DNA of 59,920 bases, filler included, from Dugesia japonica (taxonomy: Eukaryota): assembly GCA_001938525.1 (NCBI GenBank). It is 5 parts of 5 records of this genome, joined end to end, with 100 filler letters (N's around TTAATTAATTAA, not from the genome) between each part and the next. Parts side by side here need not be neighbours in the genome. Positions count along the whole stretch, not along the records: positions 17,760 to 35,493 come from MQRL01574193.1; 4 more parts are not named here. One strand, written 5' to 3'. Below the pieces are notes generated by a model. The model was not told the origin of the DNA, did no database searches, and worked only from the letters and a program-made list of their open reading frames with translations. Positions 4,201 through 55,380 of this stretch are shown one piece after another (positions within the stretch are counted from its first letter, which is position 1; every line of letters starts with the position of its first letter). The translations under genes were made by a program, and so were the position numbers.

Positions 4201-7200
4201 AGTTGTTAAAGTGATTTTTTCTGACTTGTCTGAAGAAAACAAATATTTTCGGTTGCAAACATATTTAGTTCAGAATGCTAGAATATACCATTGGTTTATT
4301 AATTTGCAAGAACAAATGAAGTATGTGAAATTTATGGAAATCTAATTAATATGACTCAGATCAGCAAAGCCACGACCAGGATATTCTGGTATTCTCTGGA
4401 AAATCGGAAATTTGCTTGATAAATTAAAAAATAGTAATATCAGCAAAGATTTATTATCGGGTAATTTATGATAATTTTCATTGCATTTTCCTATTTAAAA
4501 TCAAGGACAACCAGATATTGAAGAACAGTGGTTACGTATTGTTGAAGAATATTTGAAACCTAAAAATATCATAACTAAAAAAGGATCAGTAAATATTTTC
4601 TTTGGAGTTTTGTTTACATTTTATTTTATTTTCAATATTTCAGTTCAAAATCGATAGTGGAATGAGAGAATTAGATTTAGAATTGAACATTGTTGAAGTA
4701 ATATTATTATTATTAATATTATTAAATATTCTGTTTAATTAAAACAATTAAGTTCGATGAAACCGGAAACGATGGGCTGGAGAATAATCAAGATGCAATT
4801 TTGTAAGTTTTAGTTAGACATGCACATTTACGTTATTGAATTTCGATACGAATTATTATTTTAATGATTTTCACAGTTATTTTCGATTATAACATTTGTA
4901 AAAATAAAGTTGAAAATGTGTGCTGCTAAATTCAGAGAAAAAACAATGTATTTTATATTTATTGAATGGGTGCCCGATCAATCGATCATGAGGTGTTTTT
5001 TTTACTAGATCTCTTCCATCTCGATTATATTTACNNNNNNNNNNNNNNNNNNNNNNNNNNNNNNNNNNNNNNNNNNNNNNNNNNNNNNNNNNNNNNNNNN
5101 NNNNNNNNNNNNNNNNNNNNNNNNNNNNNNNNNNNNNNNNNNNNNNNNNNNNNNNNNNNNNNNNNNNNNNNNNNNNNTTTTTTTTACTAGATCTCTTCCA
5201 TCTCGATTATATTTACTTGGAATCATTCGTTAAGATGTTCGGTGCCCAATCAATCGATCATGAGGTGTTTTTTTTTTTACTAGATCTCTTCCATCTCGAT
5301 TATATTTACTTGGAATCATTCGTTAAGATGTTCCTGATGAGGATAATAAAAATAATATCAATCATATGTAATCATATGTAACCTCAAAACTACGAGTGGA
5401 GAACCCATGTCCCGTGAAATTCAATACAATTTAAAAAAATTATGTTTTACTTGTGTATTATTCTTGTTTTTAATGTTGTAATAAATAATGTAACACAAAT
5501 AAATGTCAGCCATAATTAGCACGCTTAGCAATCATTTATGACACGCAGAAGACATGTTTTAATATTTAAAATCCCATCCAAAATCATTCAATTTATGAAT
5601 AGTCCACGTTATTTCTATTGGTTAAACTTGAACGTTTTTCTTCAAGAAGTACTTTCAAACTATCCAATTGTGCACAATGGCGTTCAGAATTTATTGTTTG
5701 GTTGCTTGGTAGAAGTTTTTTCATTCCAGATCAATCCCACAAAACACTTAACAAACATTATTTTGGTGTAATTCTAATATTGGAGTTGTTTCCGGAGTTC
5801 CACCTTCTTTTTTTTCCAATATCGTTTACACTGAACATAATTGTGCATAATCCATTTGTCATCGCCTGTTACAATTTGTTACAAAATGAATCTATTTTTG
5901 TTTCTAATCAGCAAAGAAATGCAAGCAGAAATTTGATCAATTATGTTTTTTGTCTGATAATACAAGTGAAACCCAAATATCGTGTGTATTTGCCTTCCAA
6001 GTGATTTTAAATGTTTTCCATTTCTATAGTTTAGATCAATGATTCTCAACCTTTTTTGGTCTAGTGCCCCCTTTTCATAAATTAATTACTCAGCGCCCCC
6101 TCTAAAAATATTTAGAATGAATTCTGTTGTTTGAAGATTGATTTTCAATATCAATTGCCATTTCATCAAATCTTCTTGACACTATNGTTCAAAGGAATTG
6201 ATTCCTATTGGAACTAATTGTAGTCATATTTTCTAAAACTTCATTAATGAATGGTATTAAATATTCCCCTATATTATGTTATTTACCACACTTGCCAATT
6301 AAAAAAGCATTCCTTTGTCCGATTGTGAGACATAATGTTTATATAGAACTAGTATTGTTACTTTTTTTCAAAGCGAAGTTTAAAGCCTTTGAAATTTTCC
6401 AAATCTTTATCTTTTTTGTCTGAATGCATACTTGAAAGATGATTCCTTAAACTTAAAGGCTTTATAGCCTCATTAGAAAAGGCTTTCTTATATATATTAG
6501 GCTCATTAATTGGCGAAGCAATGAATCCAAATTTCAATAATTAGCCAATAATCAAAAATTTATAAAAATTTTACACGAATAATATAATGATAACATATTT
6601 AATATAAAAGCTTTGATCAAAATTTTTGTTTTTTTTATTGATATTGGATAAAAATTCGATATTTCGACCTTATCTTCTTTTTAAAAAGTCAATTCCTGAA
6701 GAAGACAAGGTCAAAATATCAAATTGTTATCCAATACCAATAAAAAGACCAAAAATTGTGATCGAAGCTATCATTTTAAATGAATTCTGTAAAACGATCA
6801 ATGGTTATGTCCAACAATTATTCTCGCAATAATTACAATTGTAAAATGATAACATATTGTTGAAAAATTTTAACAATACTCACCATGAATATGCAAAGCT
6901 TATTTTAGTAAGAAATTTAATGATTTTATTTATATAAACAATAAAATACTTGCACATAAGTATTTCTTTCAAATAATATCTTCAAAAATACTAAACGCAC
7001 TCTAATTTTGAAAAACACCCCCTTGAAAATCAAATTTGCTTTCAGCGCCCCCTTACCGTAAACTTTCGCCCCAAAAGGGACGATATCGTCCAGGTTGAGA
7101 ATATATAACCAAAAAATATAACTCCAATTTCCCGTGTTGATATTTGGGGATATTTTCCAACTAGTTCCTTGATTTTGTCATTATTAAGAAATGTGTTTCT

Positions 7201-9062: not shown

Positions 9063-9162
9063 NNNNNNNNNNNNNNNNNNNNNNNNNNNNNNNNNNNNNN
9101 NNNNNNTTAATTAATTAANNNNNNNNNNNNNNNNNNNNNNNNNNNNNNNNNNNNNNNNNNNN
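9063..9162. other. Artificial scaffold linker N44-TTAATTAATTAA-N44
   Basis: Six-frame stop spacer at 9107-9118; identical 100-bp structure four times in the window. Confidence 0.95.
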
Positions 9163-9383: not shown

Positions 9384-12360
9384 TTAAAGTTTTGACTTTT
9401 TTAACTCNAGATCGTTCTTCTTTGGCATCTTGATGTAAAGTCTGACATTGCGAACAAAGACTTCTATCCTTGAAAGTCCATCAGCATTTCTATGAGCTAC
9501 TCCTTTTCGGATTTCTAGTTCAAAATTAAATTCCGCTAGATTTGTTATCAATGTTTGAAACTGATAACTAATGGGCTTACTAGTCTTCGTCAAAAAAGTC
9601 AATGCTTTATGATCCGTTTTTGCTCTAAATTTCTTGCCATACAAATAGTGTTTAAAATACATCTTAAACTCATGTAGAGCTAACAATTCCTTGCAAGTAA
9701 CGCAATATCCTTTTTCGTGATTGTTTAAAGCTTGAGAACCATATGCTATGACCTGTTCCAATCCATTATCCGTTATTTGACTCAAAACTAGCATCAGTAT
9801 CCAAAATAATTTCGCCCCTATTATTTGGGAAAGTCAACATCGGANCACTACACAATTTTATCTTCAAAGATTGAAAACTATCCTGACATTCTTTTGTCCA
9901 TTCAATGTTCTTTTCTTGTCCAGTCATCGCTGCATACAATGGTGATGCAAGTCAAGCATAATCTTTTATAAAACGTCTGTAATAATTTGTTAATTCTAAG
10001 AACGTTCGTATTTGTGTGGCGCATTTCGGCGTTACGACTTCTAGAATTTTTTTGATGATTTCATCATTTGTCTCTATACCTTTAGTGCTAATTGTATGTC
10101 CTAAAAATTCCAGCTTCTTGGAATTGAACACACATTTAATTGGATATATTTTTAAACCTGCATCTTTTAGTAGCTGAAAAACTTTACCAACTCGTTTGTC
10201 GTTCTCCTCTTTAGTTTTACCATATATTAAAATATTATATAGATATACTAATACTCCTTTGTGCAATATCCCTTCAAATATTTTATGCATCAAGTTTTGA
10301 AATGTTGCTGGTGCAGTACATAATCCGAAGGGCATTCGATTGAAACAAAATTGACCCATCTTTGTACTAAAAGCCGTCTTTAGTTTTAATTCTTCACTTA
10401 GTTCAATTTGATAATAGGCTTGGCCTAAATCTAAAGAAGAAAATAAGACTGATCCTTCAAGCGTATCTAATAATGGTTGAATATCTGGAACTGGAAACGA
10501 ATACTTTTCTGAAATTGAATTCAATTTTCTAAAATCAAGACACATTCTTATCGTCCAATCTTTCTTTGGTACAATTATCAATGGGGAATTCCATGGACTT
10601 CTGCAACTTCTTATAATATTTGATTTTCTAAGCTTTTCTAACAACTCATATATTTATTTTCCAATCCTGTCTTCTCGGACTTTTCATTATTGGAGGTCCT
10701 GTCGTTTCAACGTGATGTTCTATCAGTCTCGTATGTCCAAGATCAAATTTTGATGACATTAATATATTTTTTTAAGTTTCTCTCATTTATCTTACTTCTT
10801 GGTTGACATTATTTGAAGTATTCAAGTCATTTTTCACTTTTTCTGTATTATCGGTAAATAGATTTCCATCGTTGAGTTAATAAAACCAACTTCAGTGATT
10901 TTTCTTCCGAAGAGCTTCGATAAATTTTGGATAAATATTTCTAACAATTACTACTCCTTTCTCTCTTAGCTTCCATTTCATTGTAATTTCAGTTTAGTTT
11001 TCCCGATACATTTTTCTCCTTTTTCAGAAAACACTCCTGTTAGAACAATGTGTGACGGCGATAGATCAGGTGATCCAATTCCACTCCACACATCCGCACC
11101 CATGACTGATATTGCTGCGCCTGAATCCTACAACATCTCAATGTCATATCCATCACAACGCATTAAACTCCATTCTCTCACATCTCTCTTCTGAAACATC
11201 TTATTATAGAACATCAATTTTTCATCTCGGAGTATTTTCTCTGTTATTGCAACCTCACTGATGAGATGGTTGGGTTGCTGATAGCTTTTTTTTTATCATC
11301 ATCGTCTTAAGAAACATTGCGCATATACTCAATTTGTTCACAACTGTAAGATAACATAGCATCTTCTTCTGCAATAAATAATATCTTCGGAAATGTATAA
11401 TTTCTTATTCGAATTAATNNNNNNNNNNNNNNNNNNNNNNNNNNNNNNNNNNNNNNNNNNNNNNNNNNNNNNNNNNGACAATTCATTCTTCTATGTCTTG
11501 TATCTCCACAACAGAAACATGCTCCTGGAGCTAAAACGTCTTCGCGCGGAGGATTCTTTCCCTTGGTTTTACAATAAAGCTTATTGACTAAACACTTCAT
11601 CGAATATCGAGGACAACTATTGTTTGGGCCAATCCTTGGGTCTGAATTTCATTTGCACAATACTGATTCTCTTTGAATACAATTGGTCGACTTCTTGTAC
11701 TTGGATTCTTTTGAGTATTCATTCATGGATAAGTTTTTGAAAACTTTGACTGATACTCATCTTTCTTCACTGTNTCTGCATAGCTGTTATTTTACCACAT
11801 TAACAGAATTTGCCGGTATCAATTTATCCAAATTGTTAGCTAATTCTCGTCTTTGAATATCAGTAAGTTCTGGTTGAAGAACAANNNNNNNNNNNNNNNN
11901 NNNNNNNNNNNNNNNNNNNNNNNNNNNNNNNNNNAAATTGTTAGCTAATTCTCGTCTTTGAATATCAGTAAGTTCTGGTTGAAGAACAAAAGATTCTTTC
12001 AATTTTTCTCTTCTTATACCATTAATTACAAATATTATGCAATTTCATTTAGAGTTTTTTTACTAGCAAAAACTTCATTTACTATTTTTCTTACTCTTAA
12101 CTCAAAATTACGATATTTTTCAGTTNNNNNNNNNNNNNNNNNNNNNNNNNNNNNNNNNNNNNNNNNNNNNNNNNNNNNNNNNNNNNNNNNNNNNNNNNNN
12201 NNNNNNNNNNNNNNNNNNNNNNNNNNNNNNNNNNNNNNNNNNNNNNNNNNNNNNCATAATTCTTTCGCATCTCGTCTCATTAACATATCAAACGCGAATG
12301 ATAGCTCCATTTGATTAAACGCAGCAAATTCTTTGTAGTTTGAAACCATTCATCATCCGC
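9384..12360 (-). mobile_element. Ty3/Gypsy LTR retrotransposon internal region (gag, PR, RT, RNase H), pseudogenised
   Basis: Zn knuckle CFCCGDTRHRRMNC; protease DSGA near 11120; RT ORF 9952-10644 (SPWNSP, RMCLDFRKLN, RMPFGL, mutated YLDD); RNase H ORF 9384-9794 (KELLA, TDHKAL, NADGLSR). Confidence 0.92.
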
Positions 12361-12369
12361 TTTAGATGA

Positions 12370-12960
12370 ACCCTTGAAAATATTTATTTCTTAGTAGTTC
12401 ATGTGATACTGATTTCATTTCGTTGTTAGATTATAATCGTTTTGCTCTTATTCTTTCTCCTTTGATAATCCCGATTTTTTGCCTGGTGTTGCTGCTCCAT
12501 GGTAATATCAATCCGCTGTGAAATGGTTTTATAAATAGTTTTCTAGTCATAATTCTATTAGGTTCTTTCCGTATAAGTGTGTCAAGGAAAGATATTTGGT
12601 AATCTATTGCTTCTTCTAATGTGAATTGGATGTTACTGTTGATATTGTTGGCTATATTAAGAATATTTTNNNAGGTAGTATTAGTAATGAAGAAAATGTC
12701 ATCTATGTATCTTAGCCAAAGTTTGATTTTATTATTTCCTTTATGAATAATTTCTTTTTCAATGTGATTCATGATAATAATGGCTAATATTGGGTATAAG
12801 TTATTGCCCATAACTAGACCTTTCTTCTGTTTTCATAACTGATTTTTATGTATAATCTTGTCTGAGGTGAGACAGAGTTATTAATGACTTAAAATCATTT
12901 TTTGTAATTTCTGAAATTTCTGCATAGATCCTGTGTTCATCGTAAAATTTGCTTATAGTT
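12370..12960 (-). mobile_element. Penelope-like element reverse transcriptase fragment
   Basis: KQKKGLVMGNNLYPILA, WLRYIDDIF, NIQFTLE, SFLDTLI, KPFHS, RAKRL are typical PLE RT core/thumb motifs. Confidence 0.88.
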
Positions 12961-15925: not shown

Positions 15926-17659
15926 AGGTAGATAGTAGCGCACTGACACAGCACACATGAAGAACCCCCCCCCTCGACGGATTAGTGATGTAATGAAACT
16001 TAATCCAAATGCATTTAGTTGGGAATTTTAAAAAATGACATCATATTAGGTAATATTAGGTAAACGGATAAACTGTGTCAATATTTTCCCTATGCATTTA
16101 GTTGGGAAAAAACTTTACANACAAATTATGTCATAAGATTAATTTCATCGGTGAAATTTTATCTAATAGGATTAACTGTGTAAAATTTTTTTAGTGATTT
16201 TTAGCTGGCGAGTAACATTTATGTGCAAATACATGTATTTTTAATCGTGTTTTGAAAAGTTTGGAGAATTATTTTTCAAATTTAATCCTTTTTAGTTGGG
16301 AAAATTTTACAGGCTTTAGTATTTTTAGACTTTTTTTATTGTTGGAAAAAATTTTTCAAGCTTTTAGGTGGAAATTTATTCGCTGAGGTCGAATAAGGTA
16401 AATTTTTTATTGGTTTTAAGTGGTTATTGTCTAGAATTTACTCGGTGAGGCTAAATGAGGTCAATTTTTGATTGGTTTTAAGTGGTTTTTGTCTGGAGTT
16501 TTCTCGGAGAGGTAGAACGAGCTAAATTTTTGGTTGGTTTAGGCTTTTTCGTCGGGAATTAATTCCGTGAGGTCGAATGAGGTCAATTTTTNATTAATCT
16601 AGGTGGTTTTTGTCTAGAATTTGCTCGGTGAGGCTAAATAAGGTAAATTTTTGAGTGGTTCAGGTGAATTTGGTCTAAAACTTTCTAGTTAAGGTCAAAG
16701 TTGGTCAATTTCTGGCTAGTTTAGTTGAAATTGATTGAATATTTCCTCGGGAATGGAAAGTTTAAGTTTTTTTGGGTGATTCTATTGAGTTTGTCCTTGG
16801 GTTTCGTTAATTTGGGTAATTTTGAGTGATTTGGTCAATTATTTCTCCAAGATTGCACTGTTGGATAATTTTTGAATGAATTGGTCAAATTGTTCATAGA
16901 TCCGATTGAATTTGGTTTATTTTTTGTGCGATTTTTTCAATTATTTCCTCAGGAATGGTTAATTTGGGTCAGCTTTAGATAATTGTGTCAATTATTTACC
17001 CAGTTTAGGTAATATTGGTCAAATTTTTCTCACATTAGTCTCTTGTATTCAGTTTTGGACAGTTTGGCTAATTATTTACTCACAAGGGTCAGTTTTAGGT
17101 GAATTTGAGCGCTTATTTACTCGGGTTGGTCAGTTTGGGTTAAATTTTAAGAAAATTCATGGCAAAAGTCGAATTTGTTTAAACTTTCAAATATTTTAAA
17201 ACTTTTTTAAGGAAATTTTTATAGGAATTCGGGCAAACCGTCCATGTTGTTTAAATAATATGAAATTTTTATGGGAATTCGGGTAAACATTCGAAAGTTT
17301 TAAAAAAATGTTCTATATCTCAGATGTCCAAGATTTTTATACCAAAATGTGGAGAATTTTACAGCAATCATTTTTCACAAATAAAATATTTTCTAAACCA
17401 TTTCCTTGTCAAATAGATAAACTAAGTGTCTAGTTAATAGAGAATCTTTTGCTGATTTCAAATATGTTAACCTAAAATCGTCCAAGTTAATACTCGATCA
17501 AATAAATGAGGTTTTGTGGTGAAAAATCTCAAAACTCAAATTTTAATATTCTAATCTCTATGCGCAGATGACATCTATCGATTCAAATATGATATTATTT
17601 TACTCTGGAAGAAAAAGTGACACTACAAAGTTAAAATATCGTCTCGGGAAAAATGCTTC
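15926..17659 (+). mobile_element. Polinton terminal (TIR/subterminal) region
   Basis: Starts AGGTAGATAGTAGCGCACTG. Colinear with 54333-55260 (TTTAGTTGGGA repeats, CTATATCTCAG..., AAAGTTAAAATATCGTCTCG), which abuts a pPolB gene. Confidence 0.65.
16370..17150 (+). repeat. ~61-bp tandem array (about 6 good copies, then degenerate ~50-bp units) inside the Polinton terminal region
   Basis: Unit TCGGTGAGG(CTA/TCG)AATGAGGTCAATTTTTGATTGGTTTTAAGTGGTTTTTGTCTAGAATT repeats on successive lines 16381-16740. Confidence 0.85.
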
Positions 17660-17759
17660 NNNNNNNNNNNNNNNNNNNNNNNNNNNNNNNNNNNNNNNNN
17701 NNNTTAATTAATTAANNNNNNNNNNNNNNNNNNNNNNNNNNNNNNNNNNNNNNNNNNNN
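17660..17759. other. Artificial scaffold linker
   Basis: TTAATTAATTAA at 17704-17715 flanked by 44 N each side. Confidence 0.95.
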
Positions 17760-18094
17760 TATTAGTATTATTATTATTTTTACAACGCTCAGTTTAGACT
17801 GAAATTTTAATGTACATTTATTATTCAAATTGAAATAAACATTCCATTCCTATTGCAATTAGTAATTGTGACACATTACGCTTTGAAAATATTTATAATT
17901 GCCTAAAATAAATCGTAATAAATTATTTAAAACTCTCTTTAAATAAAAATGAAATGGAAATAAAAAAATTTGTTATAAATAATTAAGTTTTCTGTTTTAA
18001 AAATAAAAGGTTTTATTAAAATTCAGTTTTTCGTATAACTTATGAAAAATTTGCTTATTAAATAAACTTAAATTAATTATTTATTAATTTTTTT

Positions 18095-18280
18095 ACAATT
18101 ACAATTATTACGAGAGTAATTGTTGATCGTTTTTCAGATTTCATTAAAATAAAAGCTTCGATCAAATTTGTTTTGTTTTTGATATTTCGAATTTTCGACT
18201 TATTCTTCGTCAATTCCTAAAATTTGAAATATTATCGAAAACAAAAATAAATTTATTCGGAGCTTTTATTTTAATGAAAT
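18095..18280 (-). mobile_element. Palindromic pLTR-like element, copy C
   Basis: Same tail and arms (TTCATTAAAATAAAAGCTTCGATC...AGCTTTTATTTTAATGAA). Minus strand TGACGA-AGAATAAGTC-GAAA-ATTC at ~18189-18212. Confidence 0.7.
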
Positions 18281-21201: not shown

Positions 21202-24200
21202 ATAATACAAATAATAATTACTAATTACTCCGGTGACAAAATTAATGAATTAATTAATAAATTTTTCAAAATTTTATGAAATTTTAAAGTTTTGATTTTT
21301 AAAATATAATTCAAAAATTGAATAGAATTTGTGTATATTTGGTTTCTCAGAGAATTTTGTTATTCGATATATTTGATCGAAAATTTGAAAATTTAATTTC
21401 AAAAATGTAATAGAAATAATTTGCTTGAATAATTTTGATTTATTTAGAATTTGTGATATTAAATCTTTTGAATCATTTGTGATGCATTTTTCGAATTTAT
21501 GAACCTAAATTTCTAAAATCTATCAAAAATGATTAGAATTTTTATAATACTTAAAAGGCGGTATTCTGAATATATTATATGCTAATGAATTATCTGTTGA
21601 AATAGATGTTTTGAAATTTTATTTTATTTTATAATAATTAAATTATTAAATATCATAAATAAATTATATCAACTAATTTTACTCAGGCCTTAACATTAGT
21701 AATATTTATGGATCATCCATTATATAAAAATTATTCAATTTAGTCACTTTAATTGGAAACAAATATATATTTAATCTATTATAACTACAAAAAATTGCGA
21801 TTCTTCATGACACTATGTTTCTCTGTTGTAAATTGTATTCCTTTATAAAGTACACCCTAAAATGCCAGAAAATTTTAGCTTTTATCCTCTAACCAACCAC
21901 ATCCATCTCTAAGTCGAAGTATTTATTAAAATGTAAAAGGTATTTTTAACATGCATAACATATGAATAACATACCGACGATGAGGCCATTAATTGGTTGT
22001 AAAAATTAATTTAAATGGATTCGAATATGCTAGCGAAAAAAATTAATTAAATTAATTCTATTTGTTAATTATTAATTTTTATCATTTGTATATTATTATT
22101 AATTTTCTCTACTAGTAATTCGCACCAATTTGGAAGAGTCACTTTGGTCTCTAACTAGCCACGGCTTATAATGGAAAAAATAGGGTGCAACTCTTGTTTC
22201 ATGAATATTTCTTCTACTCAAACTCTTAACCTTAATTAGTTCTTTAAATTTATGTTTATTTATGTTTCCATTATCAATTATCAACTTCTTCATTTCCTGC
22301 AAAATGATATTTTGTTGACAATTTTCTGTCAATTACCATTATTATTTTAAAAATTTCTGATTGTAAAAATTATTTTCATTTATAATAAGATTTTTTATGC
22401 TAAAAGTTTTTTACTTATACTTTTACTGAAACAATCAACGAAAACTTTTGAACTGGAATTTTGAATAAATTATAAATGATTTAAATAAGTGATTATAAAT
22501 AAAAAGTTTATGATTAATTTTTACATAAAACTTGATAAATATGTTGAATGTATTTAACAATGATTTTTCGTTGACTTTATGAAAATCATCAGTTAGTTAT
22601 AATAACCCATTGGCAATCAATTAACCTGTTTTTATATAAGTATTCTTAAAGATTTTCATGTTTATCAAAAATATAAATCAAATTTTTCTTATTTTTTTTA
22701 AAATTTATTACGATTTTTATATGGTATTATACTAAGAAAAATTAATAATTTTATTTTTATGTTCTTTTGAAATAAAATATAATTTTTATTATTTCATTAT
22801 TAGTTAATTTAAATTACCGTATCTCTACAACGGGGATATTTAAAGTTACGGCAAACTAACTTCAAAATAAATTTCTGTGGCGCACCTAAAATTTTCTTCA
22901 ATACACTTAGCAAATGTTTATTTTTTCATTATAATATTTGTATTTTTATAATGTTAGTTATAATTGCTGTAAAAGGTTTACTTTTCTGCAAAGTTATGAA
23001 AAGGTTCATTATTTTTACAATTACAATTATTGCGAGAATAATTGTTGGACGTAACTATTGATAATTTTTGAGAATTTATTAAAATAAAACCTTCGATGAA
23101 ATTTTTTTTGATATTATTTTGAATTTTCGACTTTGTCTTTGTCAAGAATTAACTTTTCTTTAATTCCTGACGAAGACAAAGTCGAAAATTCGAAATAATA
23201 TCAAAAACAAAAATAATTTGATCGAAGCTTTTATTTTAATGAAAGCTTCATTATTATTTTGTTCTTGCTATATTTATTCCTTGTTTTCTTGGTAAAATAG
23301 AAAATTTTATAAACAAATTTATTTTAATTACTTATTATTTAAAACTTCCTGTTTTCTATTTATTAAAATACACCCAAACTTCACTTAACACGGAAGATAG
23401 GTTCTGCTATACCATCATGTTAAGTGAAGGATGGGTGTAATACGTATTGTCCTTCTTCAGTTAATTTTTTTATATTTTAAATGGACAGCAATCATCAAGA
23501 TATCATAACCGTTATTTTTAGAAATTCGCACAGCTGTGTGTACGTCTACAATACAATATCTAATTGAAAAATATTTTCGACAAAACGAAAACCGTGTTAA
23601 GCGAGGGATGGTGTATGTGAGTAGGATATATTTCTGATAATTAAATATTGATTTGACCCATATGTATGTTGCGATTGATGTGGACCGTATGAACATTGTG
23701 AATTATATAATATATTTTTCGAATCATTGCATCATTTATATTCCCCATATTTAAGAATGCAATTGGTGTGTAATTAACACTTTTTATTATAATATAATTT
23801 TGTTGAATTTAATTTAGTTCTCGATACTAATAGTATATGTTAGGTAATTTTAAAAATTTGCAAATATTTTTAAAATTTAATGCAATGTTATTAGTTGAAA
23901 TTTTTTANNNNNNNNNNNNNNNNNNNNNNNNNNNNNNNNNNNNNNNNNNNNNNNNNNNNNNNNNNNNNNNNNNNNNNNNNNNNNNNNNNNNNNNNNNNNN
24001 NNNNNNNNNNNNNNNNNNNNNNNNNNNNNNNNNNNNNNNNNNNNNNNNNNNNNNNNNNNNNNNNNNNNNNNNNNNNNNNNNNNNNNNNNNNNNNNNNNNN
24101 NNNNNNNNNNNNNNNNNNNNNNNNNNATAAAGTATTGAATTAAAAGTCTTGTTTTAGTTGATTTAAATAAAGAAGAAAACTAATAAAACTAACAGTATAT

Positions 24201-27200
24201 ATCAGTAAAATTTAGGTATTTTTAGTCTGATAAACAAAAAATCATTTTAAAATAATTAAAACCTAACTATTCTTTTTCGAAATATTCTAAATTTAAAATC
24301 ATTATAATAATTCAGTAAAAATTGTTATATTATTCGAATCCAATTTAACCTGACCCAAATATTTTTAAAACAATAGTATTTAAGTAAATATAATGAAACC
24401 TATTCAAATTAAGATGTTTATTTTTATATTGAATCCAGTTATCTCACATTTCCTGGTTAGTGATGATTGCTATTCGGATCCGTTGTTGTTCTGATTTGCG
24501 ATGATTATTTAGTTTTGATTTAACATTTGTATTCATTGATTCATTTTTCTTCGTAAATGTAAATAAAATTTTTTTGAATTATTTTTTCAATTAATACGAA
24601 GTAATAGATGGTTCATGATCCGTTTACGAAATGTTGAATATTAGAGATTTTTACTAAATTATTTTATCTCATTTATTTTAAAATATTTGTTGTATTGATT
24701 ATTAAATATTTTTTCTGATTATATATAACTGCATTTTAATTTACTGTTTTCCTTTTTTGAAGAATTGTTCTAATCATTTTTTTATGGTTTTGATAAATTT
24801 TACTATTTTCCAAATATTTTTTTTAATATAGAAAATTTTTCAGATGCTCCACATTTTCTTAACTTAGATGGATCATTTTCAGTACTTCAATTTTTCATAT
24901 TTTTTCTTTCTACATAATCTTACCTATATATTGTTTAAGAATAAACCGATGTGAATACTTACTAAAATAATCAATTACGTCTTAGATGCAGTTGTATCTT
25001 TTCTTCTTAATTTTAAATAGTTCCGAAGCTTCATCCTATATTATATATTATGTTACGATGCTTTAGTTCTTCCGTTGATTATTTATTGTATATTATATAT
25101 TGAATGCAATGTTTGCATCGTTCAATTGCTTATTTAATGTCGAAAGCCATCGATTAACAATAAAAAANTTTTGAATATCTTCTAATGATTTCAATAGAAT
25201 GTTACCTAAGTAAATGTAATTTTTAATATTATTTGCGAGTGTTTCTTTCGGTAAAATTTGTCTCTATATTTCATTTTAGGAATATAATTAGTCATTTATT
25301 ATTCAAAGTGTTTCTTTGTTTAAATTTCTTAAATTTTACTACATAATATTTCTTTATCTAAAAACTGATCTTTTATTATATTTATTTATCTAAAGTATTT
25401 ATTAGCAGTCTTCTTTATTTTTTGAATGTTTAGAATTTTTCACTGACTTCAATTTCTACTATTCACTAAAAGCAGATTTCAAAATTCCATTCGGATTCAT
25501 TTAAATTTTGTTTTTTCTATATTCGACTCCTATTTCAAAAATTACTAATTGCATATTCCATATACAATATTGAGATTTATTTGAACTACACCAGTTTATT
25601 AACGATTTAAAGTAGTTATTCAATTTTTCTTAATGTAAACTACATTTATAAAGATAATCTTTTATTTTCAATACAAAGTCATAGATTACTAACAATTTTT
25701 TATGGTTTAGATCAGCGCTTAAACTTTTTTCATTGATGACCGCAATGTATCATCAAGATTTTTTTGGCGACTCCAGATATTAAATTTTTTATACGAAAAA
25801 CGAACTCCAAAGTAAAATCTGTAATAAATTTTGTAGTAAATAATTTTTCGCGACAGCGAAATTTCACTTCGCGACTCATAATTTAAGAAGCATGGTTTAG
25901 ATAATTAATTATTATTTTTGTTATTAATTTATAACATAATATTCATCGCCATCTTGTAATATTATATTTTATTTTCATAAATTAATTATAAATTTCGTAT
26001 GATAAAATGCAAGAGAGACCTAGCATTTCAGTGATGGTCAAGGGTCAACAGTTTGATTGTTTGTTGGATACAGGAGCAAGAATAAATGTGATGAGCATGA
26101 AAGGATTTAATAGACTCGGAGAATCAATGTTAGAGAAAAGCGAGGAACGATTGCATTGCGCAAATTACAGCTCATTGGAGACAATTGGAAAGATATGTGT
26201 CGAAGTTGTAATTTCAGAGGTGTGCAAGGAAGTATCTTTTATAATAGTAGAGAAATTAATACCAGGTCTAATTGGTGGAGTGGAATTTCAGAATACTTTT
26301 GGATATCATCTTCAAAAAAAGTGCAGGGTAGAAATAATTAATCATCGAGAAAAATTTGTTTGNNNNNNNNNNNNNNNNNNNNNNNNNNNNNNNNNNNNNN
26401 NNNNNNNNNNNNGCAAATACAGACGGGTGAACGACTGAGACATGTAATGGAGATTCTAGAAATTAACAAAGATCATAAATTGACGGCGATTATTCAGAAT
26501 AATGAGGATGTATTTATGGCAGAAAAATGGGACATTGGATGTACACACTTAACGAAGCATCGAATAATCACTAAAGGATGCTTCAACATAAAACCGTATC
26601 GCTAACTAATGAATCTAGAAGAAAAGATTGAAGAGGCCATCAAGAATCTATAGGATAATGGTANCATTCGNAAGTGTAATTCGCAATGGAATNCGCCATT
26701 AATCTGAGTTTGGAAAAAGGAANAAAGGATATACGATTATGCTTAGACTTTAGACAGCTCAATGCAATAACAGAAAGACAAGCTTTTCCTATGCCAAATG
26801 TGGACGAAATGATGGATGCTTTGGAAGGTAAGCAGTATTTTAGCTCAATAGACTTTGGAAATGCATACTACCAAGTCGAACTCAGTGAAGATTCTCAAGA
26901 AAAGACGGTTTTTCGATCAAACAAGGGCAATTTTGTTTCAATAGAATTCCTTTTGGAATTGCATCAGCACCAGGTACGTTCCAGGAAATGATGAATAAAA
27001 TAATCTGAAAAATAAAAGGAGCGATGGTTTATCNAGATGATATTCTCATATTTACCGAAACAAAGGAGCAACACTATGAAATAATCAATAAAGTATTAAC
27101 AGAAATTAAGAAGGCTGGTTTAAGAGTTAATCCGGAGAAATTTCAATTCATACGAAAGGAGATCAAATTTTTGGGTCAAATTATCAGTAAAGAAGGTATC

Positions 27201-30200
27201 AAAACTGATCCAACTAAAATAGAAGCAATTAAGAACTTTAGTAAACCAAAATGCTTTAACAAAATTAGAAGCTTTTTGGGAATTTGCAATTACTATCGCG
27301 AGTTTATTAAAGATTATTCGAAAAAGGCTAGATTACTAGAACAACTGTGTAGTGGGCCTAGTAACAAGAAAATTGAATGGGCGAATGAATCAGAAGAAGT
27401 TTTTAACGGAATGAAAGAAGCACTAATGATGTCTCCAATATTATGTTTTCCAGATATAAATAGAGGATTTATTTTGGACACGGATGCGAGTTTTTATACG
27501 ATTGGGGAAGTACTATCTCAAAAAGACAACAATGGACAAGAAAGAGTAATTGCAAATGGGTCACACGCAAGGACGAGTCATGAGAAATGATATTGTACGA
27601 CACGGAAAGAATTGATCGCAATTTACTACTTTTGTATTAATTTCAAACATTACTTATATGGATAGAGATTTATACTCAGAACAGACCATAAAGCCATCAC
27701 TTTTATGCTAAATACCAAGAAGCCGATTACATCACAGTTTCAAACCTGGATTAATTATTTGAGCAGTTTAGATATAAAATTGGAATATAGAAAANNATCG
27801 CTTCATACAAATGCGGATATGTTGTCAAGGAGTAAATGCGATACATGTGCACAATGTCTAATGTCACATAAAGATCCTAAAAGTGGAAAATTAAAAACAA
27901 TGATGTTAAATACAGTATATATTCAAGAAAAAGGCAACTTTGGTGAAAATGATGAAGGAACATGGATACCTGATGATAATGTAGAAGAAGTTATAATGAG
28001 GATACACCATCTTTTGTTTCATGCTGGAGCAAAAAAGGTAGCAGGGTATTTGAACCATAAATATAACGCGAAACATTTGTGGAGCAAAGTGCAAGAGGTT
28101 GTGTGAAGCTGTATAACATGCCAGAAAGCTAAAGTGTGGACAACAAAAACGAAGGAAGAAACCAAAAAGACGCAGTCAGTCGAAATGTTTGAACTGTTAT
28201 TTATAGATGTGTGTGGACCACTCCCGGAGACAAGTGGTCGGAAAAAATATNNNNNNNNNNNNNNNNNNNNNNNNNNNNNNNNNNNNNNNNNNNNNNNNNN
28301 NNNNNNNNNNNNNNNNNNNNNNNNNNNNNNNNNNNNNNNNNNNNNNNNNNNNNNNNNNNNNNNNNNNNNNNNNNNNNNNNNNNNNNNNNNNNNNNNNNNN
28401 NNNNNNNNNNNNNNNNNNNNNNNNNNNNNNNNNNNNNNNNNNNNNNNNNNNNNNNNNNNNNNNNNNNNNNNNNNNNNNNNNNNNNNTCGAGAGGCAGTTT
28501 AGAACTATGTGGGATATTATTAATGCAACGCTTAAAGAAAGGAAATTTTCAGATTGGGCGGATGTATTGCCAGAGATAGAATTTACCTTAAATGCTACAA
28601 AGAAGAAAACTATCGGGAAAAGCCCTGCTGAAATCTTATTTGGGAAGGAAATAAGCAGAGGAAAGTGGTATGAAACCAATACTCAAAGAGTGTACAAAGA
28701 ACAAGAANAAGAAATATTAACCAAAATACAATTCGAGATCGGTGATGAGGTCTTAGTGAAAGCTGAAACAAGAACCAAGATCGTTATGAAGGACCCTATA
28801 AGATCAAGAAGAATATTCATGACAAACGTTACATCCTTGAGGATACAAACGGGAAAATTCTTGAAAGAAACATAGAGAAAATCAAAAAAATTCTTAAAAG
28901 TGAGTGGTTTTGAAGTGAGTTGAAATTTTGGTGCTTTTATTTGGAATTATTTTTTTTTAAAAATCTCTTATTTGATAAAATGGAAGTCACAAATGATTCA
29001 ATAATATAAATTATTTAATTTAATTTTTTGTTAATTTTTCTTGTATTTCTTTTACTTTTGATTTATCTTTTTAATAATATATCCTGGTATTTATTTCTCA
29101 TTAAACATATTCAAAAAGTAATTTAAATTTTAAAAATATACAGTTTATTTGTTTTGATTTGAAATAAATAATAGCAGTGTAATTCATTATGCATTTGTAC
29201 TTAGAAATTTTACTAAAAATAGAAACAAAATAAGAAATCGTTCGACATCGTTAAACAATATCCATATATGGTGAAATATTTATTATATATTATTTATGCA
29301 CTAATTCTAGATTTGTGTCATAATCCATTAATATTTCGTCTATATAATTTTTTTCAAGAAAACGACAGTTTTTATTTTATATTTTAAATATAATCTCTAA
29401 AAATATGTTTTTTTTTTATAATGGCCCTTTGTGATATTTTATAAATAATATATAAAATATTAGTTAATATTAATATTGTTATGTGTATTCGATTTTTGCA
29501 TGTTGAGATTTTAATAATGTAACGTTTTATAAAATTTTCAATATTTAATTATTTATACATATATATGTATAATCCTGAGTATCTCAAGATTGGTAATACT
29601 GACACGTATTTCTGTTTTCTTTCTTTCATTTCAAATCGATTTTTTACATTTTTTTTAAAACCGAAGAATCGTTTTTGTCCTCGATTAGCCAGTTTGTAAA
29701 GTATTTTATTTATATCGGTTCAAAGAAACTCCAAATTATTTTTATTTTTGGAATTTTAATAATAATAAAATTTCTTGTTTGAAAATCTTTATATTGACAT
29801 ATTTTTTTATTATTTCAAAAATTAGTGAAAAAATATTTTATTTGAATATAGTATTTTAAGTAGTTTCTTTTAAATTCATTGTATAACCTCGTTAAAATGA
29901 GTAAAATTTATAAATTTTAATTTAATACAATATATTTTAAAATTTAATAAAATTTATGTTGAAGCCAAATATTATTTTAGAATAAAAAAAGCAGTATCAC
30001 TTATCCAATGACCAGTATTTTGAAAAATAAACACTCATTAAGTTTAAAATGGTCTGACAATGTAGTCATTTAAAATAACTTGCTTGTACAAATACATCGA
30101 CCAAAAATAAATACAATGCTTTTTTATGTGCAAATCTGCTGTGTCTGATGAATTTTCAATGAAATAATACCGAAGTAATTGACGATAAGAGAGTATTTAT

Positions 30201-33200
30201 CCAAAATACGACATGAAATGCAGTAATACATAATTACAGTAAAAATGATAAGTAACCTTAGCAATTACAGGGAAATATTGCCAAAATTATTTTGAAAAAA
30301 AGTTATTAGAGGTGAAATATTTCCCATCATGACATATTAATGGACAGGTATAAAAAATGAATAGATTTTTAAGCATTAAAGATTGCGTCACTCTGCCAAG
30401 TATTATAAACTAGGTTTGTTAAACGTTAAAATATCTTGGGATACAAGAAAAAATTAAGAATAACTTTGGAAATAATTAAAAGAATTTAATTTGCTATGAG
30501 AGCAAAGCATAATAGAATCCAAGGACGACGGCGCCCAAAAAATGAATATATATATATATAAATATATAATAAGATATGTTAGTAATGTAATATATTAATA
30601 TTAATAAAATTTGGATCCCAAAATAAATGAGAGTCAAATTCATTGATTATACTCATCAATTTTTATTTCATGCTGGATCGAAAAAAGTTCTTGAATATAT
30701 TTCGAGACAATTTGATATGGAAAATAAAACTGATATACTATATGAAACTGTACAAAGCTGTGAAAAATGTCAAGAAAAGAAAACTGTAACTTCAAAAACC
30801 AAAGAAGACATAATTAAAACGTGGTCTACAGATATATTTGAAATTATACATTTTGATTTTTGTGGACCGTTTAAAACCGCTAGAAATAGTAAAAAAAAAT
30901 ACATATTAGCTATTAAAGACCAATTTTACAATTTTTAGACCAATCTTATTAACATCGGTAATTGATCAAACTTAAAAATCTGTAGCAAATACATTAAAAA
31001 ATCAGTGGATTTTGAAATTTGGGCACCTACAATTATTATGTGATAGAGGAAGACCTTTAGAATCGAATTTGATTCGAGAATTGACAGAAAAACATGGAAT
31101 AGAGTAAAGTTCTCAAATCCGTATCATCATTCTAGTAATTGACAAATCGAAAGACAATTTCGAACTATAAGAGATTTCATTCATACAACATTACAACATA
31201 AAACGAATAAAGTTTGGACAGATATACTCCCAGAAGTAGAATTTATAATAAGTTCTACATATCAAAGTACATTAAAATTGAGCCTAGTGAAAATTGTATT
31301 TGGAAAGAAAATTTCGAAAGAATGGAATATTCATGAAAATGTAGAAGAGATACATGGAAATACAATAAAAAATCTCATTGGTCAAGATCAAATTAGTCAT
31401 AACATGTATATAACATGTAGACATTTTAAAATTGGAGACAAAGTTTTGGTAAAAAATATCGCTGCTAATAAAGATAAAGATAGGTATGAAAACCCAGGAA
31501 TAATATTTAAAAAGAGATATGATAGGAGTTATCACATTACATTTGAAAATGTTAAAATAGTTACCGGAAATGTAGAGTGGTTAAGAGCTTTTAAAAAGAT
31601 GAGGATATGAGGATATTTTATATTTATTATAAATCATTATTAAAATGGCATGTTGCATATGAGATCAATGTTTGTTTGTTGATTGAAATATTTTGATTGC
31701 TCAAATCATTATTACTTATATATTTATTTCTCCTTTTCTAGATTTTCATTAATAAATATGGTAATTAAACTGACTTCTAACAAAATTCATTGCTAGTTTT
31801 GAACCTATTATATATTATTGATGATAAAATATTAAATTTTGCTTATACTACTGATTATAATATATCTTTATATTCTGAAAGTGATATAAAAGATAACAAT
31901 GCAAGTTTTAGTGATAATTTCAGTTGTGTAAGTTATAATAATAAGAAAAATGTGTAATTAAAGATAGACAAATATTTAAAAAGACCTCGGGAAAATGTAA
32001 AGCATTTAAAAGATGTTAAAAGTGAAAGATTTCATTTTTCAGAAGTCTGTTTTTAAGTAGGATCCTGTAGAACTATATTTTCGTCTAAATTATAAAACAA
32101 GATGGAATTCCATATTNCCAACATTAGAAAGCTTAATTAAACTGAAGGGGTGTATTTAAAAGATTTAGAAGATAGATGCATCAAAATTTATACGGTAGTT
32201 TTACAGTTAAACAATATTGCTGATATCTTGAAATTATTAGAAATTGAAATAAATGAGTTGAGTAAAGAAGAAAATACAGTATTGACAACAGAAGATGTAT
32301 TAAAATTTCTATTTGAACAATTGAAAACGTACAATACAGAATTTAGCACTTAATAATTAAATAAAAGAATATTCATGCAAAAAATAAAATATTTATATAA
32401 TTATGCAAAGTCCTTCTAACTTTCTCAAGAGAGAAGACGAATTATAATATTTAACCAAAAATCAAATCGTTATTTTAATGGAGTAAAAAATCAATAACGA
32501 AGTCTTCAAAATCTTTATCTACTCCAATTTTAACGAAATAGATATTATGTATAAATATAAACCAAAATAAAGCAAATTATTGGTAAAAGAAATGAAGAAA
32601 AGAATGCTCTGTGTTTTACAAGATCAATGTACAAGCCAAACAAAATTTCCAGATAATATTTACCACAGAAACATTACAAAAAAGAATTTGAGCTTTTTAA
32701 ATTAATTGATACTAAAATTCTCAATTTAGAAAAGTTATTTACTTTTTTCAATATTCAGTTAACATCGACATTAAGCGAATGAGTATTTTAACCAGTATAA
32801 ATTATAAAAATGACCCAACAAAAATCACGATTACTCGGATATGTCATTTCCCATGTAAAAATGTTAACGCTAAACATTATTTGCATTGCAGGTTATTTGT
32901 ATTTAATGCCCAGCAATAAACTTTCTTAATTATATCAATTGTATATGTTGGGTTCCTTGTGTTTTACAATTTATATGACAAGTATAGATTGCTAATGCAT
33001 TATTGTATGTATAATACTATGAATATTACAATGTATGTAAAATTTGTAAATTGCCTTATTAATCCGTGTTTTTACTCAATTTTGGCCCTCCCAATCGTGT
33101 TTTTACGCATTTTTCGAAAGGTCAAGCGTGTTTATTTCAAAAAATTACCGTGCTGTTGGTTGGGCTCTAATTATAAGTATAAATACGTATAACATTATAC

Positions 33201-35493: not shown

Positions 35494-35593
35494 NNNNNNN
35501 NNNNNNNNNNNNNNNNNNNNNNNNNNNNNNNNNNNNNTTAATTAATTAANNNNNNNNNNNNNNNNNNNNNNNNNNNNNNNNNNNNNNNNNNNN
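35494..35593. other. Artificial scaffold linker
   Basis: TTAATTAATTAA at 35538-35549 flanked by 44 N each side. Confidence 0.95.
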
Positions 35594-40439: not shown

Positions 40440-42320
40440 CCCTATTTCTAATGATTTGCCATTCCAAGAAAAGATCGCAACTATTGAGTACATTTTGGAA
40501 TTCCAGCATTTACAATCTCCTTGACATTCTCAAAATTTGGTTTTAATCAAAATTTGTTTATTGTATAACCCAAAAACTCGAGCTCTTCTTGATACAGTTT
40601 ACATTTGGCTGGATTTACTTTAAGATCAGAAGCGAGAATTCTTTTAAATACTTCTGATAGAATACGATTATGTTCTTTACAATTTTTCGCAAAGATTAGA
40701 ATATCATCGATATAAACTACAGGTCGTCTAAATAGAATATCCGACAAAATCGTATGTATTAACTTTTGAAACGTATTCAGACCAGTTGATAGGCCGAAAG
40801 GCATGCGATTATAACAGTACTGATTTTTCTTTGTAAAAAGCGCGGTTTTAATTTTATCCCCATCTTCTCGTTTGACTTGATAATACACTTGACCTATATC
40901 TAGTGTTGAGAATATGATACATTCACTAAGATGATCGAATAACATTTGAGCATCTGGTATAGGAAACGAAAATTTATTAGTTGCTTCATCCAATAATCTG
41001 AAATTCTGACACATTCAAATAGCCCCATTAATTTTGTTAACAATCACTATAAGTAAGTTCCACGGGCTACTGCCTTCTTTTATTATACCGCTTTTAACAA
41101 ATGTTTCAATCATATCATCAATATTGCCTTCTAGATGCATTGATTGACGTCTTGGCTGTTGTTAGATTAGATTTCTCGTTGTGTTCATAGGATGTTTAAC
41201 AAGGTGTGTTTTACCTAGATCAAACGTATGCCCCATGAATATCGAGGTGAAATACGTTAATATTTTTTTAAAGTGTCATTTTGTGGTCTGAAAACGTCCA
41301 TAGTGACTCCTTAACGATCATCATCAGAAACATCACACATTACATTATCTGACTTGATTAATCCAATCATCTTTAATTGGATATTAAAGACTTTGAATAT
41401 GTCCATTCTTCTAATGAACTCTGGGCTTATACTCTGTACTACCACTAAATTGACAGTTTCGTCCATATTATTGTACTCAATTTTCACTTTTCCAACGCCT
41501 AAGCATTTAACGGCTTCCTTCAAAAATGCTCCACTCAATTTTATCTCTGAATTTTCCAATGGAAACGAACCACATCTTTTCCAAGCATTCATATTCATAC
41601 TGAAATCAATGATCCTGTGTCCCATAACATCTCTACATCTCTACCATTTACTTTAACCACTTTCCAAATTCTTCTATCGCTTTTCACCTACATCTTGTCA
41701 TCTACGTTTAAATTTTGATTATGATTTGTTCTTATTGTCTTGATTCCACAGACGAAATTGGAACCGTGAAATCCTTCTCGTTAAAATAGTTCACATCATG
41801 TGCTACTTCATCCGATTCATCGCAAATTACATCTATAGTTTCGTTTTCATTAGTTTCATCCGCAATGCATCTAACATCGTGATATTTCCCAAGCAGTCTA
41901 CAATTTCTAAACTTATGTCCTGATTTTTCACAAATTACACAGCAATCTTTTAGAGGACAATTATTGTGGAAATTTCTCATTGAACCACAACAAAATCACA
42001 TAGCGGGTCTCAAAATCTCTTTTCTTGGAAGTGAAAAATCTTTTGATTGATTATGAAACTTTCTGGCAATGAACTTCATAGATGTCGCCGGTAAGTTTCT
42101 CTGGATTAGCTTTTGGTATTGAATTTGAGAATTTGTTTCTGCATCATTAACAACAGCAGCTTTCCTTGATACCACTGACCTATCCGGAGTTCGAATGCAA
42201 TTATGACTGTTAATTCTTACTGTATCAATTACATATTTTTATATAATTTTCTTTTAAAACTGTTGAGATGCTTTGGGGATTGTTGCCAAAGCAAATCAGC
42301 AATTGCGTGAGTTTAGTAGT
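40440..42320 (-). mobile_element. Ty3/Gypsy gag-PR-RT remnant
   Basis: Zn knuckle CVICEKSGHKFRNC; protease region 41311-41625; RT 40547-41014 (RMPFGL, VVYIDDILIF, FLGYTI). Confidence 0.9.
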
Positions 42321-45471: not shown

Positions 45472-45571
45472 NNNNNNNNNNNNNNNNNNNNNNNNNNNNN
45501 NNNNNNNNNNNNNNNTTAATTAATTAANNNNNNNNNNNNNNNNNNNNNNNNNNNNNNNNNNNNNNNNNNNN
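45472..45571. other. Artificial scaffold linker
   Basis: TTAATTAATTAA at 45516-45527 flanked by 44 N each side. Confidence 0.95.
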
Positions 45572-54332: not shown

Positions 54333-55380
54333 AGTAGATAGATAGTGAGTTACTGGATCACACACACAATCACAACCACTCCCAGGATTAATGATGTAAC
54401 GAAACATAATTCTAATGTATTAAGTTGGGAATTTAAATATTGCATCATATTAGATAATATTAGTTAATTTCATTAAAATAAGATAAGGCTTCGATCGAAG
54501 CCTTATATTATTTTAATGAAATCTCAAATCCGATCAATGGTTAAGTCCAACAATTATTCTCACAATAATTGTAATTATAAAATTAGTTAATTTGGTTTGA
54601 TTTTTCCCTGTGTATTTAGTTGAGAAATTTTTTTGCTTACAAATTATGTCATTAGATTAATCTCATCGTCGAGCTTTTTACGTAATATAATTAAGTGTTG
54701 TGATATTTTCATGTGTATTTAGTTAGGAAATTTTTTCAAGCTTTTATGTGGCAAAAACGTTTTATCGAAATTTTTTTATTGGAATCCGAGCAAACCGTTT
54801 TGTTTAATGTTGTTTAATATAATATAAAAATTTAAAAATTTTTCAATGAAATCTTTATGGGAATTTGGGTAAACAGACCAAATTTTTGAAAAAATATTTT
54901 CTATATCTCAGGTTTCAAAGATTTTTATACCAAACTGCTGAGGATTTTACGACGATAATTATTGGTTTTCCAATATTTTATACAGAAATCTTTTGAAATT
55001 ATGTTGTTTACTCAAAATCGGCCAACAAGGTGTTTAAATGATAGAGAATGTTTGTTTGATTCCAAATATGTTAAAATCGTCGAAGTTAATATTCGGTGAA
55101 ATAAATGGGTTTTGTGATGTAAAAATCTCGTAATTCAGAGTTTAATTCTCAGACCTCTGTGCGTAAAAAACTGCTATTGACTCAAATTTAGTATTTTTTT
55201 TTACTCAGGAAGAAACATTGGCTGTGCAAAGTTAAAATATCGTCTCGAAAAAAAGCTTCCTAACAAATATGTACAACTGTCCTAGCGGATTTTAATATTT
55301 TTTGAAAATATCAAAAGTAACTTAAAATTTATCGAAATTGATACTATTCGATGGAAAGTTTTACAGTGAGTACAAATAAC
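54333..55380 (+). mobile_element. Polinton terminal region (5'-AGTAGATAG)
   Basis: Begins AGTAGATAGATAGTGAG; colinear with 15926-17659; directly followed by pPolB. Confidence 0.7.
54471..54581 (+). mobile_element. Palindromic pLTR-like element, copy E (collapsed), with 12-bp TSD
   Basis: Palindrome centred on CGATCG (54468-54521) plus tail. ATTAGTTAATTT at 54459-54470 and 54582-54593. Absent from the homologous TIR near 16060. Confidence 0.8.

Follow-up and report, generated by a model that had tools for sequence, protein, structure and literature searches.

The window analyzed here, a stretch of 59,920 nucleotides of Dugesia japonica DNA (assembly GCA_001938525.1), is AT-rich (19–33% GC) and crowded with broken mobile elements. 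Four identical 100-nt linkers, in which Ns surround a 12-nt word with stops in all frames, lie at 9063–9162, 17660–17759, 35494–35593 and 45472–45571, implying that the window was likely built from five separate segments. An initial annotation had described five related copies of a short element, each with a long hairpin and a tail of about 60 bp, and this was confirmed when we compared the five regions with the window by BLASTN: the five copies were the only strong matches (pairwise E 1e-34 to 1e-11), accompanied by two short weak matches elsewhere (E 3e-4 and 0.004), and 5/5 copies consist of a long hairpin of two head-to-head arms with a tail on one side only.

Several other features were seen in the window. 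Broken protease/RT/integrase pieces of LTR retrotransposons lie at 9384–10653 (with RVT_1 confirmed for 9952–10653), 25992–28875, 30627–31610 and 40547–41640, and their motifs suggest that they are Gypsy-like. ORF fragments resembling phospholipase A2 (PF08398, 36695–37171) and endonuclease VII (PF02945, 56619–56978) are of kinds typical of Polinton/Maverick-like elements. A tandem array of six diverged units, each about 61 nt long, occupies 16342–16721, and an inverted repeat of 73 bp at 51828–51973, near-perfect and centered on (AT)n, which gave the best sub-threshold Rfam miRNA matches, is possibly another foldback element. Just to the right of the fourth copy, 23356–23427 is a different, moderate repeat with a summed contig depth of about 1,000–2,700 compared with 10–20 in its flanks.

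Copy A (551–765) has its tail on the left, and the same 7 nt of helix II and G12 of the ribozyme described below are missing from both of its arms. Copy B (6600–6846) has its tail on the right and a contiguous sense unit on the plus strand from about 6686; its arm with CUGA lacks G12, which is changed. Copy C (18091–18280, tail on the left) has no intact CUGA, and copy E (54471–54581, tail on the right) is a short hairpin that begins downstream of the ribozyme. Copy D (23014–23244) shows the whole insertion, comprising tail, inverted arm, junction and free arm. Its tail (23014–23075, minus strand, about 60 nt) covers the start of the ORF region of a Penelope-like element (PLE) and is predicted to fold into a short stem-loop, and its inverted arm (23074–23152, minus strand) is a second copy of the sense unit with a decayed core, having 7 mismatches to the free arm in 78 aligned columns. 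Tail length is 60–64 nt in these copies, apart from 50 nt in copy C, which carries a 13-nt deletion there.

Exact target-site duplications of 9, 14, 8, 9 and 12 bp flank copies A to E, respectively: 542–550/766–774 for A, 6586–6599/6845–6858 for B, 23005–23013 and 23247–23255 (both plus strand; 14 bp with one mismatch) for D, and 54459–54470/54582–54593 for E. That of copy C is the weakest of the five, being low-complexity (12 bp if one mismatch is allowed). In control comparisons, 8 bp was reached by 0/20 cross-copy boundary pairs and 9/400 random pairs. Each copy is one insertion. The arms within copies A, B and E have that copy's private indels in common, and the two arms of one copy differ at 4–15% of aligned sites, implying that the copies are old and that a single template likely gave rise to both arms of each. 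All five junctions differ, each lying at or beside a short self-complementary motif, and at contig joints the inverted-arm lengths were many and different, each near single-copy depth (depth 6–120; 15 listed of 228 joints). A junction that is different in every copy makes the antisense arm most likely a by-product of integration; if so, the replicating unit is then the sense strand of about 165 nt. Head-to-tail tandems were seen in 0/5 window copies and in none of the 15 listed among the 228 contig joints.

The free arm of copy D contains the motif of a minimal type-I hammerhead ribozyme (23162–23196, plus strand), recognized by our own descriptor and by the family variation described below. 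Helix I is formed by 23162–23166/23192–23196, and CUGAnGA (23167–23173) is followed by an extra A (23174) between positions 9 and 10.1, a 3-bp helix II (23175–23177/23181–23183) with a 3-nt loop and the G10.1–C11.1 pair at 23175/23183, G12–A15.1 (GAAA, 23184–23187), AU at 15.2/16.2 (23188–23189), U16.1 (23190) and H17 (23191); the motif is predicted to cut RNA after 23191. The descriptor, written after the motif had been seen, matched two sites in the window, copy D and one unrelated site at 30145; 400 block shuffles put the chance rate at 0.005 matches per window, and 200 Markov simulations put it at 0.01. That second, lone match (30138–30172, plus strand) has CUGAUGA at 30145, an A-U helix II and 5/6 pairs in helix I, is without the helix III insert and unrelated to the five-copy family, and is to be set against a chance rate of about 0.01 per window or less. 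At E≤5, Rfam gave no hammerhead family among 27 matches in the window; sub-threshold miRNA matches fell on copies D, B and E. A hammerhead consensus had been reconstructed for the family, but the motif is complete in 1/5 copies only, copy D, and E has none.

We examined how the ribozyme varies over the family by mapping contigs to the interval 23150–23206 (3,502 and 3,180 contigs; 80% likeness needed, counts weighted by contig depth) and inspecting all 14 variant rows of at least 3%. Loop II was variable at 5.7% and 18.6% (contig set X2). Positions 15.2 and 16.2 varied at equal depth (38.9/39.9% in X2 and 42.3/43.5% in X4), from which we infer that they probably change together as a paired AU/UA swap. 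Copies A and B have AUAU as helix III, C and D have AAUU, and the same split runs through the family at about 40:60, just as the earlier observation of a helix III that changes yet stays palindromic had it; the palindromic 15.2–16.2 of the PLE minimal hammerhead was found in two DNA contig sets, and the original assignment to the minimal type-I class was right. H17 is C or A (C>A in 31%, X2). U at 23195 in about 62% restores the helix I pair missing in D, giving a helix I of 5 bp in that fraction and one mismatch in the rest, D included. The sixth helix I pair (C–G) of the proposed consensus is not family-wide, a G row of at least 3% at 23197 being absent in 4/4 runs, and 23198 also varies (at least 3%, X2). 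In the catalytic core, G12>A at 4.6% is the sole exception, the other core positions showing less than 3% variation. DNA variants of at least 3% were absent at the extra nucleotide 23174 and at the 23175/23183 pair, and the remaining variant rows had few RNA reads behind them and stayed below 2% in DNA.

Conservation of the core above the free positions had been named as a check of the ribozyme, and it came out in its favor: at a 5% cut-off, 0/11 invariant core positions vary compared with 5/8 free positions. The Fisher p for this contrast, 0.005, or 0.04 with G12 counted, is indicative only because of the 80% mapping threshold, the depth weighting, the few subfamilies and the non-independence of positions. 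The core is near-invariant, and the variation falls in the free positions (loop II, the helix III swap and H17).

Evidence from beyond the window comes from contig sets of sequencing runs of one organism and from protein searches. Mapping of copy D on three contig sets recruited 27,519, 26,581 and 24,961 contigs, compared with single-copy flanks at depth 9–13, so that the high copy number suggested at the outset stands. Scaling the density of five copies per 57,639 called bases to 746–933 Mb of contig letters, we infer an abundance of the order of 10^4–10^5 copies; summed contig depth was not taken as copy number. The family ends at 23013 and 23243–23244 in the three sets, and 798, 760 and 734 contigs exit at 23013 into unrelated AT-rich DNA, so that this one position alone accounts for at least several hundred distinct sites. 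Upstream, an A-run plus GUC some 10 nt ahead of 23162 marks where the common sequence fades (agreement 0.51–0.53 over the 30 letters shown); the common sequence thus starts at a fixed point about 15 nt upstream of the CUGAnGA core.

Depth does not rise at the predicted cut site (270,532 before and 235,189 after, X1), implying that the copies carry the ribozyme uncut and that their likely template was uncut RNA. In 3 RNA runs, read ends did not pile up; these were poly(A)/cDNA short-read libraries whose type and depth are unsuited to judging cleavage (11 and 26 reads over the ribozyme). Of the 13.6 million reads of one poly(A) run, 2,233 mapped, on both strands, and 96% of them continue into unlike sequence, which fits passive read-through. 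Nearest-neighbor energies for a double hammerhead formed from copy D (+8.8 kcal/mol compared with −10.3 for an alternative dimer, without a positive control) were not used because the model ignores core contacts and copy D has its own helix I mismatch.

A broken PLE reverse transcriptase (RT) fragment lies at 12374–12956 on the minus strand, interrupted by stops and a frameshift. Its best relative of 3 (70%) is P0001, a protein of 843 aa with RVT_1 and GIY-YIG domains; the fragment aligns with P0001 aa 464–660 (65% over aa 491–660, E 4e-61), its RVT_1 match (E 6e-5) is below the Pfam cut-off, and it belongs to the same family or to a sister family. The fragment noted initially is therefore real, but it sits between two N-linkers on a segment with none of the five copies; its nearness alone is no evidence because of this, and physical linkage to the copies was rejected.

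The proposed connection with a PLE is borne out by the tails. When the first 30 aa of P0001 were searched against the window by tblastn, the five best matches (E 2e-9 to 6e-6) coincided with the five tails, the next match had E 0.23, and 0/300 shuffled queries reached the score (72 compared with a maximum of 51). The tails encode P0001 residues ~1–18 in 5/5 copies (matches within aa 1–20); in copy D, 23061–23014 aligns with aa 3–18 at 75% identity. The tail thus has a coding origin, although the element had been called non-coding. The tails stop at residue 18, right before the N-terminus common to full-length relatives, and the commonest alternative sequence beside the tail, at contig loose ends at 23062, encodes the first four residues of P0001. 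The main tail variants listed stay in an open frame (a synonymous Cys codon change and a Thr/Lys change matching P0001). The first codon of P0001 is about 85–95 nt downstream of CUGAnGA; it seems that tail and ORF adjoin each other both if translation begins in the tail and if it begins at Met21, the putative ribozyme-to-ORF adjacency resting on the tail peptide. This peptide was absent from 155 other proteins compared (best score 29), and the N-terminus of P0004 does not match the tails.

P0001 carries a DKT motif and a CxCX5C linker. In its endonuclease a CxxC and two later His are present, which we take to be the CCHH-type motif. Filing P0001 under the Hydra clade was rejected on the retained CCHH and the ribozyme type; its sequence appears Nematis- or Hydra-like. 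Compared with the Nematis linker CX2-5CxxC it has a one-residue-shorter variant, and many relatives at 34–39% have CX3CxxC. Exact-pattern scans for the tail gave 0 matches in both viral contigs and prokaryote genomes, and those for the ribozyme motif gave 0 in viral contigs. A metagenome scan with the P0001 alignment returned 77 loci, all distant (23–46%), with only one 22-nt match to the element (E 0.009).

These observations can be considered together. Four features of an insertion made by an endonuclease-bearing PLE were found, namely a tail from the ORF start, an inverted and variably 5′-truncated arm, a one-sided tail and a duplication of variable length, and we are highly confident that the five copies are gene-less pseudo-LTR (pLTR) insertions of such an element. 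One point against this fit is the tail, about 60–64 nt long compared with 30–40 nt in print. That the PLE's own RT-GIY-YIG protein inserted them from uncleaved RNA is, as an overall explanation, probable. We lean, with less assurance, toward by-products of the RNA of an autonomous PLE rather than of a self-propagating short RNA.

Taking the anatomy, the duplications, the tail that equals the 5′ end of the P0001 ORF and the conserved hammerhead core as what was directly observed, we modeled the steps on the Anolis Poseidon element PAc. The endonuclease would nick both strands of AT-rich DNA about 8–14 nt apart; one nick would prime cDNA at a distal site, the end of the tail, and the other about 60 nt upstream, the end of the free arm. 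Both cDNAs would run back to the RNA 5′ end, about 15 nt upstream of CUGAnGA, and join head-to-head at short self-complementary motifs, which would give a hairpin with one tail. RT would start inside the 5′ pLTR and ORF start of normal, uncut mRNA; if it can start there, a few active masters would turn out copies without an ORF in large numbers as by-products. Any action of the ribozyme would be confined to the masters, which would have two pLTRs and use a dimer or protein assistance; the ribozyme would be under purifying selection there, while the scattered solo copies decay and the antisense arm arises as a by-product whose junction is made anew each time. The two-nick, two-start steps are borrowed from the lizard element and would apply here by analogy, AT-rich flanks being what is seen in this family. 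An unchanging core beside an AU/UA switch in helix III and a C/A switch at H17 points to selection in masters. Gene-less pLTR copies from autonomous PLE RNA explain the data by a published mechanism.

The strongest competitor is a non-autonomous, retrozyme-like RNA, in which solo pLTRs with their own promoter would yield a transcript of about 165 nt that is re-inserted in trans by the PLE protein, so that the family spreads without the ORF and the ribozyme is under its own selection. We regard it as possible and rather unlikely. The fixed start about 15 nt upstream of the core and the lack of a conserved ORF 3′ end upstream in most contigs would suit it, but the same fixed 5′ end is also expected from RT starting in the 5′ pLTR of normal mRNA. 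The very high abundance also speaks for it, as does the core-killing 7-nt deletion in both arms of copy A, which counts against the by-product model to the extent that it fits a defective or non-autonomous template equally well. In the excerpts used here, pLTRs suffice in cis for trans-mobilization in A. vaga (PMC3846280), and animal retrozymes are proposed to be pLTR-derived (bioRxiv 10.64898/2026.07.22.740005). On the other side, none of the five copies has the tandem arrangement that is the defining trait of non-LTR retrozymes, the frame stays open in the main tail variants listed, and 96% of the mapped RNA reads, which fall on both strands, continue into unlike sequence. The independent non-coding ribozyme element of the initial annotation is in this respect possible. 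A more specific version, which we hold slightly less probable still, is that the ribozyme-plus-tail unit of about 165 nt escaped its parent PLE and became a retrozyme-like parasite that is not in tandem, forms hairpins, spreads by itself and numbers tens of thousands of copies; as part of the same joint reading, it would keep a selected dimer hammerhead though copied from uncleaved RNA. If true, the escaped unit would be a natural test bed for the purpose of PLE hammerheads.

It is improbable that the whole hairpin is the functional unit, with an antisense arm that silences the ribozyme or yields dsRNA or small RNAs for element or host. On the plus strand of copy D, 24/25 ribozyme positions are predicted to pair with the antisense arm at a probability of at least 0.98, but any inverted duplication would give such pairing; elsewhere, small RNAs directed against Penelope have been reported (PMC3846280, as excerpted). 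Against this reading, the junction is different in each of the five copies, loci near single-copy depth differ in arm length, the two arms have been diverging through decay (4–15%), and in copy E the hairpin lacks any ribozyme that could be sequestered. The idea, envisaged earlier, of a palindrome that moves as one piece and whose antisense arm is functional is accordingly unsupported, because an inverted 5′-truncated pLTR with a tail is the ordinary product of PLE integration. A foldback or MITE DNA transposon with a fortuitous hammerhead-like string is hardly credible and largely refuted, for although the copies are short, AT-rich, high-copy and hairpin-forming, they have an asymmetric, one-sided tail that encodes a PLE N-terminus, variable 8–14-bp duplications instead of symmetric ends and a fixed length, a descriptor match with a chance rate of at most 0.01 per window, and hammerhead-type covariation.

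Returning to the gene-less pLTR reading, a two-start, internal-initiation model predicts hairpin-plus-tail copies without genes whose ends are fixed and whose ribozyme is uncut; that model came from one in-vitro system, and the present family extends the comparison to a different PLE lineage at genome scale. What PLE hammerheads do is treated as unsettled in the excerpts of two papers (PMC8557442; PMC11167929), and the AU/UA and C/A variants provide a natural set for ribozyme assays. Such hairpins can also be mistaken for MITEs or miRNA precursors.

The insertion architecture and the ribozyme class are already published, the ribozyme kind having been described in 2014, so the finding is largely ordinary; the notable features are the abundance, the long tail and the natural ribozyme covariation. 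A search of the literature turned up no earlier account of the family, and tail and motif searches of the Craig 2021 supplement gave nothing relevant in the sequence runs shown there (PMC8557442). The comparisons below draw on excerpts of the cited papers.

As excerpted, Craig 2021 describes for PLEs an inverted 5′-truncated copy, a one-sided tail of 30–40 bp and a hammerhead in the pLTR (PMC8557442), and Arkhipova 2013 describes a pLTR holding the first 12 aa with a tail extending to 22 aa, duplications of 8–10 bp, head-to-head palindromic junctions and solo pLTRs (PMC3846280). The present copies resemble Pen2/Pen2a of A. vaga in the head-to-head inverted copy, palindromic junctions and 8–10-bp duplications (PMC3846280; PMC8557442) and in a one-sided tail into the first ~20 codons, the A. 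vaga pLTR being about 200 bp (PMC3846280). They differ in the tail of about 60 nt instead of 30–40, in having no ORF between repeats, and in their very high abundance, A. vaga copies being few in those excerpts (PMC3846280; PMC8557442). With non-LTR retrozymes they share a short, ORF-less build, a type-I hammerhead and a PLE relationship (bioRxiv 10.64898/2026.07.22.740005; PMC7229834), but retrozymes are defined as tandems in the former excerpt, in a head-to-tail order, whereas the copies here are head-to-head single insertions with tail and duplication.

Minimal hammerheads were defined by Cervera and de la Pena 2014, in whose excerpted text thousands occur as solo motifs attributed to truncated PLEs, monomers have no activity and dimers low activity (PMC4209133). 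Like these metazoan PLE ribozymes, the present one is type I with a helix I of 4–5 bp, an extra nucleotide between 9 and 10.1, G10.1–C11.1 and a palindromic 15.2–16.2; unlike the S. mansoni form, with a helix II of 7–8 bp, it has a 3-bp helix II and a 3-nt loop (PMC4209133, as excerpted). Our descriptor found 12 motifs on the 77 distant PLE loci, several with a 4-nt palindromic helix III, and the minimal build with a short palindromic helix III recurs beside unrelated PLE ORFs (L003:2813, L006:2768, L025:1984, L037:198 and L055:1863), L037 having the same 3-bp helix II and 3-nt loop as this family. At another of these loci, on a metagenome contig, two identical hammerhead motifs 181 nt apart (L043:36 and L043:217) lie immediately 5′ of a PLE RT match, an arrangement that would suit a tandem pLTR or a retrozyme.

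Within the excerpts of Craig 2021, P0001 resembles the Hydra clade in its DKT and CxCX5C linker and the Nematis clade in a short Cys linker, and differs from Penelope/Poseidon in having a Cys-rich RT-EN linker at all (PMC8557442). It is unlike the Hydra clade in keeping the CCHH-type motif, described there as absent in Hydra, and the ribozyme is unlike that of Hydra elements in being without a 3–4-bp monomeric helix III (PMC8557442). A further comparison is with the Anolis Poseidon element PAc. As excerpted, Frangieh 2024 reports that both strands are cut and extended, that two internal RT starts bound the tail, and that cleavage is protein-assisted, insertion being independent of cleavage and using uncleaved RNA (PMC11167929). 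PAc differs in that its ORF starts within the ribozyme, compared with a P0001 first codon about 85–95 nt past CUGAnGA, and the two agree in a ribozyme near the ORF start, AT-rich targets and, by the steps proposed here, an uncleaved RNA template and a tail that equals the stretch between two internal RT start sites (PMC11167929).
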